From: Escherichia coli
GTDB lineage: Bacteria > Pseudomonadota > Gammaproteobacteria > Enterobacterales > Enterobacteriaceae
Assembly (NCBI RefSeq): GCF_003334355.1
Contig: NZ_QOWP01000064.1
DNA: 7,192 nt
Strand: one strand, 5' to 3'
Part shown: positions 1 to 7,192 of the stretch, piece by piece
Layout: each line of letters opens with the position of its first letter
How positions within the stretch are numbered: position 1 is the first letter of the stretch
Position numbers and translations under genes: made by a program
The notes under the pieces: generated by a model
Told to the model about the DNA's origin: nothing
Databases searched by the model: none
The model's input: the letters and a program-made list of their open reading frames with translations, nothing else

Positions 1-972
1 ATCTTCTGCGACGAACATGGTCGCGTGCGGGTGAAGTTCAACTGGGACCGTTATAACCCGGCAGACCAAGACAGTTCATGCTGGATCCGTGTGGCACAGG
101 CGTGGGCAGGCACCGGCTTTGGCAACCTGGCGATACCGCGAGTGGGTCAGGAGGTGATTGTGGACTTCCTCAACGGCGACCCGGACCAGCCGATTATTAT
201 GGGGCGTACCTACCACCATGAAAACCGCACACCCGGCAGCCTGCCGGGGACGAAGACGCAGATGACGATCCGCTCGAAAACCTATAAGGGCAGCGGGTTT
301 AATGAACTGAAGTTTGACGATGCGACAGGGAAAGAACAGGTCTACATCCACGCGCAGAAGAACATGAACACCGAGGTGCTGAATAACCGCACCACTGATG
401 TGATAAACAACCATGCTGAAACCATTGGCAACAATCAGATGATTGCGGTTACCAACAATCAGATACAGACGGTGGGTGTTAACCAGATAGAGACGGTGGG
501 CAGTAACCAGATAATTAAAGTGGGTTCTGTTCAGGTGGAAACGATTGGACTTGTTCGTGCGCTGACCGTGGGCGTGGCGTACCAGACGACGGTAGGTGGC
601 ATTATGAACACTTCGGTGGCTCTGATGCAGTCCTCGCAGATCGGTTTGCATAAATCGTTGAGGGTCGGGCTGGGTTATGACGTCAAAGTCGGAAATAACG
701 TTACCTTCACCGTTGGTAAAACGAAAAAGGATGATACCGGGCAGACCGCGATTTACTCCGCCGGTGAGCATCTGGAGCTCTGCTGTGGTAAGGCAAGGCT
801 GGTGCTGACGAAGGACGGACAAATTTTTCTCAACGGCACAAAAATTCATTTGCAGGGTAAGGAGCAGGTTAATGGTGACTCACTGTTGATTAACTGGAAC
901 TGTGCAGCCTCGAAATCCCCACCGAAGACCCCTGATGAAAAGCAGGATACGCCGGATATGAGAGAGTACTGA
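1..972 (+). CDS. vgrG: VgrG (T6SS spike) C-terminal portion; 5' end lies outside the window
   Basis: Frame 1 is open from nt 1 (IFCDEHGRVRVKFNWDRYNPADQDSSCWIRVAQAWAGTGFG...) to TGA at 970-972. The FCDEHGRV.KF.WDR block followed by NQIxTVGx octapeptide repeats is the VgrG gp27/gp5-like region as I recall it. The ORF track start at 25 (GTG) is internal. Confidence 0.9.
   Translation: MFCDEHGRVRVKFNWDRYNPADQDSSCWIRVAQAWAGTGFGNLAIPRVGQEVIVDFLNGDPDQPIIMGRTYHHENRTPGSLPGTKTQMTIRSKTYKGSGFNELKFDDATGKEQVYIHAQKNMNTEVLNNRTTDVINNHAETIGNNQMIAVTNNQIQTVGVNQIETVGSNQIIKVGSVQVETIGLVRALTVGVAYQTTVGGIMNTSVALMQSSQIGLHKSLRVGLGYDVKVGNNVTFTVGKTKKDDTGQTAIYSAGEHLELCCGKARLVLTKDGQIFLNGTKIHLQGKEQVNGDSLLINWNCAASKSPPKTPDEKQDTPDMREY
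433..528 (+). repeat. Four tandem 24-nt units inside vgrG encoding octapeptide beta-helix repeats (NQMIAVTN / NQIQTVGV / NQIETVGS / NQIIKVGS)
   Basis: Direct repeats visible in the sequence: aatcagatgattgcggttaccaac, aatcagatacagacggtgggtgtt, aaccagatagagacggtgggcagt, aaccagataattaaagtgggttct. All are in the vgrG frame. Confidence 0.85.
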
Positions 973-1031: not shown

Positions 1032-4000
1032 TTGAATCATGAGCGGAAAACCAGCGGCGCGTCAGGGAATATGACTCAGTATGGCGGTCCCATTGTCCAG
1101 GGTTCGGCAGGTGTAAGAATTGGCGCGCCCACCGGCGTGGCGTGCTCGGTGTGTCCGGGCGGGATGACTTCGGGCAACCCGGTAAATCCGCTGCTGGGGG
1201 CGAAGGTGCTGCCCGGCGAGACGGACCTTGCGCTGCCCGGCCCGCTGCCGTTCATTCTCTCCCGCACCTACAGCAGCTACCGGACCAGGACACCCGCGCC
1301 GGTGGGAGTGTTTGGCCCCGGCTGGAAAGCGCCTTCTGATATCCGCTTACAGCTACGCGATGATGCACTGGTACTCAACGACAACGGCGGGCGGAGCATT
1401 CACTTTGAGCCGCTGCTGCCGGGGGAGGCGGTGTACAGCCGCAGCGAGTCAATGTGGCTGGTGCGCGGTGGTAAGGCAGCGCAGCCGGACGGCCACACGC
1501 TGGCGCGGCTGTGGGGGGCGCTGCCGCCGGATATCCGGTTAAGCCCGCATCTTTACCTGGCGACCAACAGCGCACAGGGGCCGTGGTGGATACTGGGGTG
1601 GTCAGAGCGGGTGCCGGGTGCTGAGGACGTACTGCCAGCGCCGCTGCCGCCGTACCGGGTGCTTACCGGGCTGGCAGACCGTTTCGGGCGGACGCTGACG
1701 TACCGGCGTGAGGCCGCAGGCGACCTGGCCGGGGAAATCACCGGCGTGACGGACGGTGCCGGGCGGGAGTTCCGTCTGGTGCTGACCACGCAGGCGCAGC
1801 GTGCGGAAGAGGCCCGCACCTCTTCGCTATCTTCTTCTGACAGTTCCCGCCCTCTCTCAGCCTCAGCGTTCCCCGACACACTGCCCGGTACCGAATACGG
1901 CCCCGACAGGGGTATCCGCCTTTCGGCGGTGTGGCTGATGCACGACCCGGCATACCCGGAGAGCCTGCCCGCTGCGCCACTGGTGCGGTACACGTATACG
2001 GAAGCCGGTGAACTGCTGGCGGTATATGACCGCAGCAATACGCAGGTGCGCGCTTTCACGTATGACGCGCAGCACCCGGGCCGGATGGTGGCGCACCGTT
2101 ACGCGGGAAAGCCGGAGATGCGCTACCGCTACGACGATACGGGGCGGGTGGTGGAGCAACTGAACCCGGCAGGGTTAAGCTACCGCTATCTTTATGAGCA
2201 GGACCGCATCACCGTCACCGACAGCCTGAACCGGCGTGAGGTGCTGCATACAGAAGGCGGGGCCGGGCTGAAACGGGTGGTGAAAAAAGAACTGGCGGAC
2301 GGCAGCGTCACGCACAGCGGGTATGACGCGGCAGGAAGGCTCACGGCGCAGACGGACGCGGCGGGACGGAGGACAGAGTACGGTCTGAATGTGGTGTCCG
2401 GCGATATCACGGACATCACCACACCGGACGGGCGGGAGACGAAATTTTACTATAACGACGGGAACCAGCTGACGGCGGTGGTGTACCCGGACGGGCTGGA
2501 GAGCCGCCGGGAATATGATGAACCGGGCAGGCTGGTATCGGAGACATCGCGCAGCGGGGAGACAGTACGCTACCGCTACGATGACGCGCACAGTGAGTTA
2601 CCGGCGACGACAACGGATGCGACGGGCAGCACCCGGCAGATGACGTGGAGCCGCTACGGGCAGTTGCTGGCGTTCACTGACTGCTCGGGCTACCAGACCC
2701 GCTATGAATACGACCGCTTCGGCCAGATGACGGCGGTTCACCGCGAGGAAGGTATCAGCCTTTACCGCCACTATGACAACCGTGGCCGGTTAACCTCGGT
2801 GAAAGACGCACAGGGCCGTGAAACGCGGTATGAATACAACGCCGCAGGCGACCTGACTGCCGTCATTACCCCGGACGGCAACCGGAGCGAGACACAGTAC
2901 GATGCGTGGGGAAAGGCGGTCAGCACCACGCAGGGCGGGCTGACGCGCAGTATGGAGTACGATGCTGCCGGACGTGTCATCAGTCTGACTAACGAGAACG
3001 GCAGCCACAGCGACTTCAGCTACGATGCGCTGGACCGGCTGGTACAGCAGGGCGGCTTTGACGGGCGGACGCAACGTTATCATTATGACCTGACCGGAAA
3101 ACTCACGCAGAGTGAAGATGAGGGGCTTATCACCCTCTGGCACTACGATGCGTCGGACCGCATCACGCACCGGACGGTGAACGGCGACCCGGCAGAGCAG
3201 TGGCAGTATGATGAGCACGGGTGGTTAACCACCCTCAGCCATACCAGTGAAGGCCACCGCGTGTCGGTCCACTACGGCTATGACGATAAAGGCCGCCTGA
3301 CCGGCGAACGCCAGACGGTGGAGAACCCGGAGACGGGGGAACTGCTGTGGCACCATGAGACCGGACATGCGTACAACGAACAGGGGCTGGCAAACCGCGT
3401 CACGCCGGACAGTCTGCCGCCGGTGGAGTGGCTGACCTACGGCAGCGGCTATCTTGCGGGCATGAAGCTGGGCGGGACGCCGCTGCTGGAGTTCACGCGC
3501 GACCGCCTGCACCGTGAGACGGTGCGCAGCTTCGGCAGCATGGCAGGCAGTAATGCCGCATATAAACTGACCAGCACATACACCCCCGCAGGCCAGTTAC
3601 AGAGCCAGCACCTGAACAGCCTGGTGTATGACCGTGACTACGGGTGGAATGACAACGGCGACCTGGTGCGCATCAGCGGCCCGCGACAGACGCGGGAATA
3701 CGGCTACAGCGCCACGGGCAGGCTGGAGAGTGTGCGCACCCTCGCACCAGACCTGGACATCCGCATCCCGTATGCCACGGACCCGGCGGGCAACCGGCTG
3801 CCGGACCCGGAGCTGCACCCGGACAGTACACTCACAGTGTGGCCGGATAACCGCATCGCGGAGGATGCGCACTATGTCTACCGCCACGATGAATACGGCA
3901 GGCTGACGGAGAAGACGGACCGCATCCCGGCGGGTGTGATACGGACGGACGACGAGCGGACCCACCACTACCACTACGACAGCCAGCACCGCCTGGTGTT

Positions 4001-5261
4001 CTACACGCGGATACAGCATGGCGAGCCACTGGTCGAGAGCCGCTACCTCTACGACCCGCTGGGACGGCGAATGGCAAAACGGGTCTGGCGGCGGGAGCGT
4101 GACCTGACGGGGTGGATGTCGCTGTCGCGTAAACCGGAGGTGACGTGGTATGGCTGGGACGGCGACCGGCTGACGACGGTGCAGACTGACACCACACGTA
4201 TCCAGACGGTATACGAGCCGGGAAGCTTCACGCCGCTCATCCGGGTCGAGACAGAGAACGGCGAGCGGGAAAAAGCGCAGCGGCGCAGCCTGGCAGAGAC
4301 GCTCCAGCAGGAAGGGAGTGAGAACGGCCACGGCGTGGTGTTCCCGGCTGAACTGGTGCGGCTGCTGGACAGGCTGGAGGAAGAAATCCGGGCAGACCGC
4401 GTGAGCAGTGAAAGCCGGGCGTGGCTTGCGCAGTGCGGGCTGACGGTGGAGCAACTGGCCAGACAGGTGGAGCCGGAATACACACCGGCGCGAAAAGTTC
4501 ATTTTTACCACTGCGACCACCGGGGCCTGCCGCTGGCGCTCATCAGCGAAGACGGCAATACGGCGTGGCGCGGGGAGTATGATGAATGGGGCAACCAGCT
4601 TAATGAGGAGAACCCGCATCACCTGCACCAGCCGTACCGTCTGCCAGGGCAGCAGCATGATGAGGAGTCGGGGCTGTACTATAACCGTCACCGGCACTAC
4701 GATCCGTTGCAGGGGCGGTATATCACCCCGGACCCGATTGGGTTGAGAGGTGGATGGAATATGTATCAGTATCCGTTGAATCCCATACAAGTGATAGACC
4801 CAATGGGGTTAGATGCGATTGAGAATATGACATCAGGTGGACTAATTTATGCCGTATCTGGTGTACCTGGATTGATTGCTGCAAACAGCATTACTAACAG
4901 TGCTTACCAGTTCGGTTATGATATGGATGCTATTGTTGGCGGAGCTCATAATGGGGCCGCCGATGCAATGAGACATTGTTACTTGATGTGTCGAATGACT
5001 AAGACATTTGGATCAACAATAGCTGACGTGATAGGTAAAAATCATGAGGCGGCAGGGGATAGACAAGGTCAGCCAGCTAAAGAAAGAATCATGGATCTTA
5101 AAAATAACACTGTCGGTATTGCTTGTGGCGATTTTTCTGCCAAATGTAGCGATGCATGTATTGAAAAATATAACACTGGGCAACTCTTCGGGTTAGATGG
5201 TATAAAAGCAGATAATCCAATAAAAGCAAAGCAAGGGAGTTCAGATGCTTCAAATTATTAG
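1032..5261 (+). CDS. Rhs-family polymorphic toxin: PAAR-like N-terminal domain, YD-repeat shell, RHS core ending in DPxGL, variable C-terminal toxin
   Basis: 1409-codon ORF ending at TAG 5259-5261. Many YD-type repeats ([86 protein letters not shown]). Core terminus is [32 protein letters not shown]. The start is ambiguous: in-frame candidates are TTG 1032 and ATG 1071, while the ATG with the best Shine-Dalgarno (1039) is in another frame. Confidence 0.9.
1039..1074 (+). other. Short [14 protein letters not shown]-stop carrying the PAAR motif, out of frame with the rhs body
   Basis: ATG 1039 preceded by GAAGGA (1025-1030) with an 8-nt spacer. It translates atg agc gga aaa cca gcg gcg cgt cag gga ata tga. 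Confidence 0.6.
4731..4811 (+). other. RHS core C-terminal boundary with two DPxGL motifs (DPIGL 4731-4745, DPMGL 4797-4811)
   Basis: Both motifs read directly in the rhs frame. The sequence turns from GC-rich to AT-rich across this segment. Confidence 0.8.
4812..5258 (+). other. Rhs variable C-terminal toxin domain, about 149 aa, family not recognised
   Basis: Sequence downstream of DPMGL: [151 protein letters not shown]-rich, with five Cys and several His. Confidence 0.7.
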
Positions 5262-5727
5262 AGGCAAACTTGTCATTTTTTTAATTACCCTTTGTTTATT
5301 TGTTGTTTACCTTGGGTTTGATAACAATTCAAATTCTGACATCGTATTTTATGGACATAAAACACCAAAGAGCGTTGAGATATATCTTTCTGAAAAAAAT
5401 ATTATTTATAAAATAATTAATGACCAAAAAATTAGTAGAGGGAATGGTCATTTTATAAGTGTAATGGTTAATAATTACAGGACGCACTGTGGAGTGGTTG
5501 ATATAAATCTTAATTTTTTCAATGATATTCTTTATAGCGTGCGATTAAAAAACATTAGTAAACTGGAGAATATGGAGTTCTGCGCTACAAAACAACGGGT
5601 GTATTTTAGTGATAAAAACAAGAAGGCTAGTTATAAAATAATTAATTATGGAGACTATTATGATGTTGATTATTATGATAACAATTTGAAAAATGAAGTT
5701 TTTGACTGGATTGGTAAATGGTCATAA
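5245..5727 (+). CDS. Putative cognate Rhs immunity protein (160 aa) with N-terminal hydrophobic signal/anchor segment
   Basis: ATG 5245 preceded by AGGGAG (5234-5239) with a 5-nt spacer. It overlaps the rhs stop by 17 nt and ends at TAA 5725-5727. Positively charged start (RGK) then hydrophobic [17 protein letters not shown]. Same AT-rich composition as the toxin domain and the usual position for an Rhs immunity gene. Confidence 0.7.
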
Positions 5728-5804
5728 TGAACAACACCAGAAAGAGAAAAATATAAAATACATACAGAAAGACATGAGAGCAAGGGACGGGGCAGGGCAA
5801 GATC

Positions 5805-5836
5805 ATGAAAATTGTGATGTAAATCACGATTTTCAT
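5805..5836. repeat. Imperfect inverted repeat: 14-nt arms (13 of 14 complementary; the odd position is a G-U wobble in RNA) around a 4-nt loop; possible weak terminator or protein-binding site
   Basis: atgaaaattgtgat-gtaa-atcacgattttcat, followed by ctttgcttt. It lies 78 nt downstream of the immunity stop. Confidence 0.5.
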
Positions 5837-5908
5837 CTTTGCTTTAACGCCTACAGGTGATCAAAATTTAACCTTTGGAATAACTAAAAAGATAAAAAAG
5901 GACGCCAG

Positions 5909-7031
5909 GTGAGTATTCAAAGTTTGCTTGATTATATTTCAGTGACCCCTGATATACGACAACAAGGAAAGGTTAAACATAAATTATCTGCTATTTTGTT
6001 TCTCACCGTATGTGCAGTAATTGCAGGTGCCGATGAGTGGCAGGAAATTGAAGATTTTGGACATGAAAGACTTGAATGGCTAAAGAAATATGGTGATTTT
6101 GATAATGGCATTCCGGTCGATGACACCATTGCACGCGTTGTGAGTAACATTGACAGTTTGGCCTTTGAAAAGATGTTTATTGAATGGATGCAGGAGTGCC
6201 ATGAAATCACTGATGGTGAAATTATAGCAATAGATGGAAAGACCATAAGAGGCTCCTTTGATAAGGGAAAAAGAAAAGGAGCAATCCATATGGTGAGTGC
6301 ATTCTCGAACGAAAATGGTGTTGTACTGGGGCAGGTGAAAACGGAAGCCAAAAGTAATGAGATTACAGCCATTCCAGAGTTGCTTAACCTACTGTATTTA
6401 AAGAAAAATTTGATAACCATTGATGCTATGGGCTGTCAGAAAGATATCGCTTCGAAGATCAAAGATAAAAAAGCAGATTATCTTCTGGCAGTAAAAGGCA
6501 ATCAGGGGAAATTACATCATGCATTCGAGGAAAAATTTCCTGTAAATGTGTTTTCTAATTATAAAGGCGATTCGTTTAGTACGCAGGAGATAAGTCATGG
6601 AAGAAAAGAAACACGTTTGCATATTGTCAGTAACGTAACGCCTGAACTTTTGTGATTTTGAATTCGAATGGAAGGGATTAAAAAAGCTTTGTGTAGCATT
6701 GTCATTCAGGCAGAAGAAAGAAGATAAATCAGCAGAAGGTGTAAGCATCCGATATTATATTTCATCAAAGGATATGGATGCTAAAGAATTTGCACATGCT
6801 ATCAGAGCGCACTGGCTGATCGAGCACAGTCTTCATTGGGTGTTAGATGTAAAAATGAATGAAGATGCCAGCCGGATAAGAAGAGGAAACGCAGCCTAAA
6901 TAATATCTGGAATAAAGAAGATGGCACTGAATTTATTAAGAGATTGCAAAGACATTAAGGGTGAAGAGGAAAAGAAAGAAGGCTGCGTTAAACACAGGGA
7001 AAGATCATCAGAAGTTCACTTTTTGTACTAA
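5909..7031 (+). pseudogene. ISAs1-family (H-repeat associated) transposase, disrupted by a frameshift near 6650-6653 and an in-frame TAA at 6897-6899
   Basis: Segment 5909..6655 carries the family hallmarks as I recall them (EITAIPELL, DAMGCQKDIA, AVKGNQG). The protein continues in another frame from about 6654 ([18 protein letters not shown]...[29 protein letters not shown]) to TAA 6897-6899. The same frame then stays open for 43 more codons (IISGIKKMALNLL...) to TAA 7029-7031. The three segments sum to about 371 codons, close to the family length as I recall it. Confidence 0.8.
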
Positions 7032-7126
7032 ATAATTCGCATTTTATGTTTAAAAATTGAGATATTCCTCATTACCTGAAGCTGTTTTTTATTGCTTATA
7101 CATGATCAAATACTCCTTACATAATT

Positions 7127-7132
7127 AAGGAG
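7127..7132 (+). promoter_or_regulatory. Shine-Dalgarno AAGGAG for the second H-repeat transposase
   Basis: aaggag at 7127-7132, 6-nt spacer, ATG at 7139. Confidence 0.6.
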
Positions 7133-7138
7133 AACAAA

Positions 7139-7192
7139 ATGGAACTTAAAAAATTGATGGAACATATTTCTATTATCCCCGATTACAGACAA
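7139..7192 (+). CDS. 5' end of a second ISAs1-family (H-repeat) transposase; continues beyond the window
   Basis: MELKKLMEHISIIPDYRQ matches the N-terminus of E. coli H-repeat proteins (YhhI-like) as I recall it, and a strong SD lies upstream. It shares only 8 of 18 residues with the N-terminus of the upstream pseudogene (MSIQSLLDYISVTPDIRQ). Confidence 0.75.
   Translation, partial: MELKKLMEHISIIPDYRQ

Follow-up and report, generated by a model that had tools for sequence, protein, structure and literature searches.

The closest described counterpart of the locus analyzed here is the RhsE locus of Escherichia coli K-12, where ydcC (b1460, annotated as H repeat-associated putative transposase YdcC) lies between the pseudogene yncI', located upstream, and pptA, located downstream. 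The H-repeat (H-rpt) at this site, H-rptE, is reportedly 1,291 bp long and carries a 1,134-bp open reading frame, ORF-H. ISEc1 (H-rptB, with the gene yhhI) and the H-rpts of the RhsC locus (ybfQ, ybfL and ybfD) belong to the same insertion sequence (IS) group, with 95-99% nucleotide identity, and are likewise found 3' of an rhs toxin/immunity module. In K-12 RhsC (L010, 9303-11861) there are three tandem H-rpts: the left end of the second (C2) truncates the first (C1) after 380 bp, and immediately beyond the right end of C2 comes the third (C3), whose sequence begins with element position 25. Tandem copies therefore truncate one another at RhsC as well; however, all of them are of the ISEc1 type and their truncation points differ from that of the RhsE junction, whose partners are two different family members. 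The other partner at RhsE is related to ISEc26, which in its intact form in O157:H7 spans 1,305 bp, encodes a transposase of 390 aa and has the ends CAGGGCAAGATCATG (left) and ATGCTCTTGCCCTG (right).

The stretch of DNA studied in this work (the window) comprises 7,192 nucleotides of E. coli. It is the RhsE locus with a K-12-like gene order, and the ydcC element at its 3' end is one already annotated in K-12. Many complete E. coli genomes have an RhsE locus that matches the last 1.5 kb at 100% identity; for the whole window the closest genome is that of strain PSS-12 (99.9%), and no genome is 100% identical over the full length. When synteny was compared with related genomes, as the original prediction had proposed, the same gene order was found in E. 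coli C, PSS-12 and K-12 MG1655: vgrG/rhs, ydcD, yncO, an ISAs1 pseudogene (yncI in K-12), ydcC and pptA. The K-12 rhsE gene is a truncated pseudogene, whereas the rhs gene of the window is full length and follows vgrG. The features of the window are the following:

25-972: 3' end of vgrG, from the list of open reading frames (ORFs)
1032..5261, plus strand: full-length rhs gene (rhsE-type), an ORF of 1,409 aa, from the ORF list and the annotation in relatives
5245..5727, plus strand: ydcD, a 160-aa ORF after the rhs toxin tip, presumed immunity gene (NF050020 YdcD_fam, 215 bits)
5793..6994, plus strand: decayed, 3'-truncated ISEc26-type element of the ISAs1 family (K-12 pseudogene yncI), 98.6% identical to intact ISEc26
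5793..5805, plus strand: left terminal inverted repeat of the decayed element, CAGGGCAAGATCA, whose right partner in the intact O157 element is ATGCTCTTGCCCTG
5909..6655, plus strand: N-terminal transposase ORF fragment, 248 aa (NF033564, 293 bits, profile positions 1-218 of 314)
6699..6899, plus strand: C-terminal transposase ORF fragment in another frame (NF033564, 82 bits, profile positions 240-300)
6995..7192, plus strand: stretch assigned, by comparison of copy ends, to the left 198 bp of a 1,291-bp ISAs1-family IS (H-rptE; ISEc5 in the NCBI naming, ISEc1 group)
6995..7007, plus strand: left terminal inverted repeat CAGGGAAAGATCA, 13 bp, the same left end as in all copies compared
7113..7132, plus strand: predicted 7-bp hairpin CTCCTTA-N6-TAAGGAG, in which the Shine-Dalgarno sequence pairs with an upstream anti-Shine-Dalgarno sequence (MFE -8 kcal/mol, z -2.1)
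7127..7132, plus strand: Shine-Dalgarno sequence AAGGAG, 6 nt before the ATG, read from the sequence
7139..7192, plus strand: first 18 codons of ydcC, which encodes a 378-aa ISAs1-family DDE transposase; translation MELKKLMEHISIIPDYRQ

The TTG at 1032 is merely the first start codon of the open frame of rhs; RefSeq gives a product of 1,407 aa, with its start at ~1038-1039. The start of ydcD and the stop of rhs overlap by 17 nt. At window position ~4800 the G+C content drops: the rhs core has ~0.65, the toxin tip, ydcD and the IS region 0.30-0.43. Homology between strains is likewise lost here, at 4787; such a composite architecture is classic for Rhs elements. On the minus strand, 5642-5827 hold yncO, a gene for a small protein that is annotated in K-12 as well as in many further strains; it runs antisense to the ydcD 3' end. 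The yncO start codon falls within the left end of the decayed ISEc26 (5793 onward), so that the N-terminus of YncO and any promoter of this gene are IS DNA. In PSS-12 (L011, 1-3900), a Tn3-like transposon of the TnAs1 family carrying tet(A) truncates the 5' end of vgrG; the RhsE island has thus acquired a resistance transposon. A scan of 5200-7192 against Rfam found no RNA family.

The first of the two IS-related elements is, by its near-identity and its left inverted repeat, ISEc26. Positions 5793-6994 are 98.6% identical over 1,202 bp to the O157:H7 copies annotated as ISEc26 family, and 100% identical over the same 1,202 bp to the K-12 yncI pseudogene (b1459); the sequence was found in 2,529 of 5,426 complete genomes, usually as one copy per genome. 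The pseudogene starts with the GTG at 5909, which gives the N-terminus MSIQSLLDYISVTPDIRQ. Four lesions that the intact ISEc26 of O157:H7 does not have distinguish this copy: an additional nucleotide at 6647 that shifts the frame, a nonsense change (GAA to TAA) at 6897, a 5-bp deletion after 6958, and the loss of everything beyond 6994-6996, that is, ~100 bp including the right inverted repeat, which is absent from the decayed copy. In RefSeq the pseudogene extends to window position 7035, so the last ~40 nt of the annotated feature already belong to the second element. At the left end of the decayed element a strong hairpin is predicted on the plus strand (5794-5845, MFE -22.6 kcal/mol, z -6.1; none of 200 shuffled sequences folds as well), with a 14-bp inner stem (5805-5836) and an outer stem that pairs bases of the inverted repeat, followed by CTTTGCTTTA. 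This predicted structure could stop read-through from rhs/ydcD into the transposase gene, or could be a structure for the recognition of the IS end.

The second element begins at 6995. In a search with the E. coli C DNA that runs from the junction through ydcC to pptA, copies at other loci matched only from query position 96/97 to 1387/1388, and for the copies at rhsB, rhsC, the O-antigen locus and min-5 the match is confined to element positions 1-1291. In agreement with this limit, genomes lacking the junction matched a 200-bp probe centred on 6995 only from probe position 99/100 (window 6994/6995). The full ydcC element in E. coli C (L001, 9296-10586) is 1,291 bp long; this length and that of its ORF agree with those reported for H-rptE. 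Terminal inverted repeats are present at both ends: CAGGGAAAGATCA on the left matches the reverse complement of the right end TAATCTTGCCCTG (L001, 10574-10586, read in E. coli C, outside the window) at 11 of 13 positions. A sequence similar to the left repeat inside vgrG (window 326-338) was considered a chance match; it has 2 mismatches and no IS context. The window contains 198 bp of the ydcC element, and everything further 3' is inferred from other genomes. On these grounds 6995-7192 is very probably the left end of H-rptE, the element that closes the RhsE island on its right-hand side, next to pptA. The original prediction had set the beginning of the second element at 7092, a position that in fact lies ~97 nt inside it; the distance of 108 nt that it gave between the decayed copy and the second one holds for the ORFs and fails for the elements, which touch at 6994/6995.

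The K-12 element is 98.8% identical at the nucleotide level to that of E. coli C, which in turn agrees fully with the last 1.5 kb of the window (100% identity), and both are 1,291 bp long; with the same flanking genes and a near-identical sequence, the element of the window is the ortholog of K-12 H-rptE/ydcC. The yncI'/ydcC pair of the RhsE locus is accordingly already known. All the features of the ISAs1 family that could be tested are present in the ydcC element, with the exception of a target-site duplication at the RhsE copy.

The ATG of ydcC is placed 144 nt inside the element, after a leader of that length. In the genomes that are 100% identical over the last 1.5 kb, the ORF starting at 7139 is the 378-aa ydcC, annotated as "ISAs1-like element ISEc5 family transposase". 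The window has 18 codons of it; the full-length product of E. coli C is an ISAs1-family DDE transposase that scores 416 bits against NF033564 (cutoff 70), contains the Pfam domains DDE_Tnp_1_assoc (PF13808) and DDE_Tnp_1 (PF01609), and shows 98.7% amino acid identity to K-12 YdcC and 97.6% to YhhI. The proposal that an ORF with a strong Shine-Dalgarno sequence at 7139 encodes an H-repeat transposase was therefore correct, as was the assignment of MELKKLMEHISIIPDYRQ to the N-terminus of E. coli H-rpt proteins: K-12 YdcC starts with MELKKLMGHISIIPDYRQ, and the sole difference in the first 18 residues is E8 in the window and G8 in K-12.

Upstream of this ORF, the arms of the CTCCTTA-N6-TAAGGAG hairpin are both unchanged in 8 of 11 copies of the element, and each of the other 3 has a single arm substitution. 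In other insertion sequences, protection at the level of translation against transcripts that come from outside is known; the predicted hairpin at 7113-7132 resembles such arrangements, and an equivalent function may be predicted for it. A scan of 5700-7192 for promoters gave 2 sigma-70-like sites, against 5.0 expected by chance. One of them, at 7097-7125, was treated as a chance match because transcription from it would start inside the Shine-Dalgarno site.

Both transposase genes of the window are adjacent, have the same orientation and belong to the same family, as would be expected if one element had been recently duplicated in tandem and one of the copies had then decayed. The divergence of the two copies refutes this explanation, to which we assign practically no probability. 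Compared directly, they show 56% amino acid identity (tblastn) and ~67% nucleotide identity over the part that can be aligned; when the intact ISEc26 ortholog is used instead, the ydcC element shows only 59% amino acid identity and 62% nucleotide identity over whole elements. A hand count of the N-termini MELKKLMEHISIIPDYRQ and MSIQSLLDYISVTPDIRQ gives 8 identical residues out of 18, the same number reported in the original prediction. Moreover, each element has closer relatives elsewhere: 98.6% identity to ISEc26 for the first, and 97-99% to ISEc1/ISEc5 copies for the second. The two are thus different members of the ISAs1 family and not the result of a recent duplication, as had been proposed from the sequence of the window.

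The structure of the junction is less easily accounted for. Homology to the decayed copy ends at 6994-6996 and the terminal inverted repeat of the second element begins at 6995, so the elements abut directly, and the second one sits in the place of the last ~100 bp of ISEc26. No target-site duplication was found around the ydcC element, whose flanks GCGTTAAACA and GGCATTATTG differ, and no remnant of the ISEc26 right end was found downstream of it. A simple tandem insertion would not leave this arrangement, and the tandem insertion by repeated IS targeting that had been proposed is not sustained. The direct product of two independent simple transpositions, of ISEc26 3' of ydcD and later of an ISEc1-type element beyond or into ISEc26, would nonetheless fit with several facts: the elements represent distinct members of the family, several Rhs loci have H-rpt elements on their 3' side, tandem and mutually truncating copies also exist at K-12 RhsC, and strain A19 has two extra solo left-end fragments at the RhsE site. 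We consider this explanation unlikely, since the second element lacks a target-site duplication, while a bona fide insertion described below has one of 10 bp, the ISEc26 right end (~100 bp) does not reappear further downstream, and the junction is shared by two chromosomal loci whose right flanks differ. Duplications were also sought at rhsB, rhsC, rhsE, min-5 and one O-antigen copy, and none was found; among the copies inspected only that bona fide insertion has one.

The solo fragments of A19 (L003, 5778-5803) are two back-to-back H-rpt left ends, CAGGGAAAGATCA CAGGGAAAGATCATC, located next to an IS1 fragment, ~200 bp upstream of the ydcC element; additional H-rpt events at RhsE seem to have left them behind.

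On the right side of the ydcC element, the DNA is the ordinary pptA upstream region, common to a strain without the Rhs island: in this strain, MEC2025-PR, homology resumes immediately past the H-rpt right end. A true empty site for the ydcC element was sought in this genome, where the genes to the left of pptA encode a GGDEF protein and a sulfatase; given that these genes are unrelated, the comparison fixes only the right boundary and shows no pre-insertion target.

The distribution of the junction is wide. Of the 5,426 complete genomes, 2,185 (~40%) have it, and it occurs at two chromosomal loci, since an identical junction (...GCGTTAAACA|CAGGGAAAGATC...) is found in strain ij001 at the min-5 T6SS/rhs locus, beside yafV. 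Its occurrence in so many genomes and at two loci points to a spread by homologous recombination. From the sequence comparisons we lean towards a single ancient junction that would afterwards have been carried between Rhs loci by homologous recombination, a history that we regard as somewhat probable. According to this model, the ISEc26|H-rpt junction would have originated once, when the 3' end of ISEc26 received an ISEc1-type element, either by insertion or by recombination. The block formed by the 3' part of the rhs core, the toxin tip, ydcD, the truncated ISEc26 and the H-rpt would then have moved between Rhs loci by homologous recombination, with one crossover in the conserved rhs core and the other in the resident H-rpt; a crossover in the resident H-rpt would have removed the flanks expected of a simple insertion. 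The loss of the ISEc26 end and of the duplication would also result from an adjacent deletion mediated by the IS.

Several comparisons bear on this model. RhsE and the min-5 locus of ij001 share a block that starts within the rhs core and extends as far as the H-rpt right end; it is 97.6% identical, whereas vgrG is only 89% identical. A19 lacks ISEc26 at RhsE, and both its toxin tip and its immunity gene there are different; its sequence can be matched to that of E. coli C as far as the rhs core reaches, and again from precisely the H-rpt left end onward. The patterns of SNPs in the H-rpts are mosaic, as judged by inspection of 11 copies only: the K-12 copy differs from that of E. coli C only in the first ~560 bp, and the differences of the ij001 copy are found mostly in the last 400 bp, where it is similar to a RhsC copy. 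A cassette made of toxin tip, immunity gene and dead IS could in this way be swapped between unlinked Rhs/T6SS loci, such as RhsE and min-5. It is also conceivable, and we propose it tentatively, that the H-rpt may act as a portable downstream homology arm for the exchange of Rhs toxins, with the rhs core as the left arm.

The association of H-rpt elements with Rhs loci, invoked in the original prediction, is borne out by their position 3' of toxin/immunity modules at RhsB, RhsC, RhsE and min-5. The further idea that the insertions had separated this rhs gene from orphan toxin/immunity cassettes downstream does not hold for RhsE, where pptA directly follows in every genome inspected. It starts ~90 bp past the H-rpt right end in E. 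coli C, K-12, PSS-12 and A19, and in these four genomes no rhs C-terminal fragment with an immunity gene was found beyond the second IS. The genome paper of E. coli W likewise lists 0 C-terminal tips in the b1455-b1461 (RhsE) region of four strains (Table 6, PMC3032704). An orphan arrangement does occur elsewhere, at the min-5 locus of O157:H7 strain F6667 (L012, 2428-7305). This orphan is the equivalent of window 3507-6996 (the 3' part of rhs, ydcD and ISEc26); its rhs fragment begins 1-2 nt past the right end of another, frameshifted H-rpt, and upstream of this H-rpt a different rhs tip and a Sel1-repeat gene are located. In the orphan module, ydcD is frameshifted and ISEc26 is intact.

We know of no H-rpt transposition reported in the older literature. 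The E. coli W paper likewise states that none has been reported (PMC3032704), which is compatible with ydcC being a domesticated, fixed chromosomal gene kept for a host function, with its IS-like ends as relics. The element is found beside pptA, in the same position, in very many genomes (at least 80% of a ydcC/pptA probe was found in 4,914 of 5,426, although copies at other loci also reach such coverage), and the ydcC ORF is intact in K-12, C and PSS-12. Domestication nevertheless seems quite improbable to us: both inverted repeats are intact, near-identical copies are present at several loci of each genome (a median of 5 places per genome in the 5,426 complete genomes), and at least one copy is flanked by a fresh 10-bp duplication. 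In addition, ydcC is a pseudogene in A19 and further H-rpt copies are frameshifted, which argues against selection for a host function.

The copy with the fresh duplication is found in strain 382634_2f, between ugd and gnd (L006, 2991-4301), where an ISEc1-type H-rpt is located inside an IS200/IS605 tnpA gene. A perfect 10-bp duplication, GACGTAGTAC, flanks it on both sides, and removal of the element together with one GACGTAGTAC restores the reading frame of the IS200 tnpA. This duplication constitutes sequence evidence for the transposition of an ISEc1-type H-rpt, and it indicates that at least some H-rpt elements of this type are real mobile DNA. The ydcC copy at RhsE behaves as a fixed landmark.

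By itself, this finding matters little; its use resides in a corrected anatomy of the locus, with the true IS boundary at 6995, and in the view of yncI'/ydcC as what may be one ancient junction present in ~40% of the complete E. coli genomes, as opposed to two local insertions. As an angle that is only mildly new, the sequence comparisons suggest that H-rpts mark a recombination boundary of the Rhs toxin cassettes. If the proposed role of the H-rpt as a homology arm were true, it would explain why these elements persist at the 3' edges of Rhs islands although their transposition is seldom observed.
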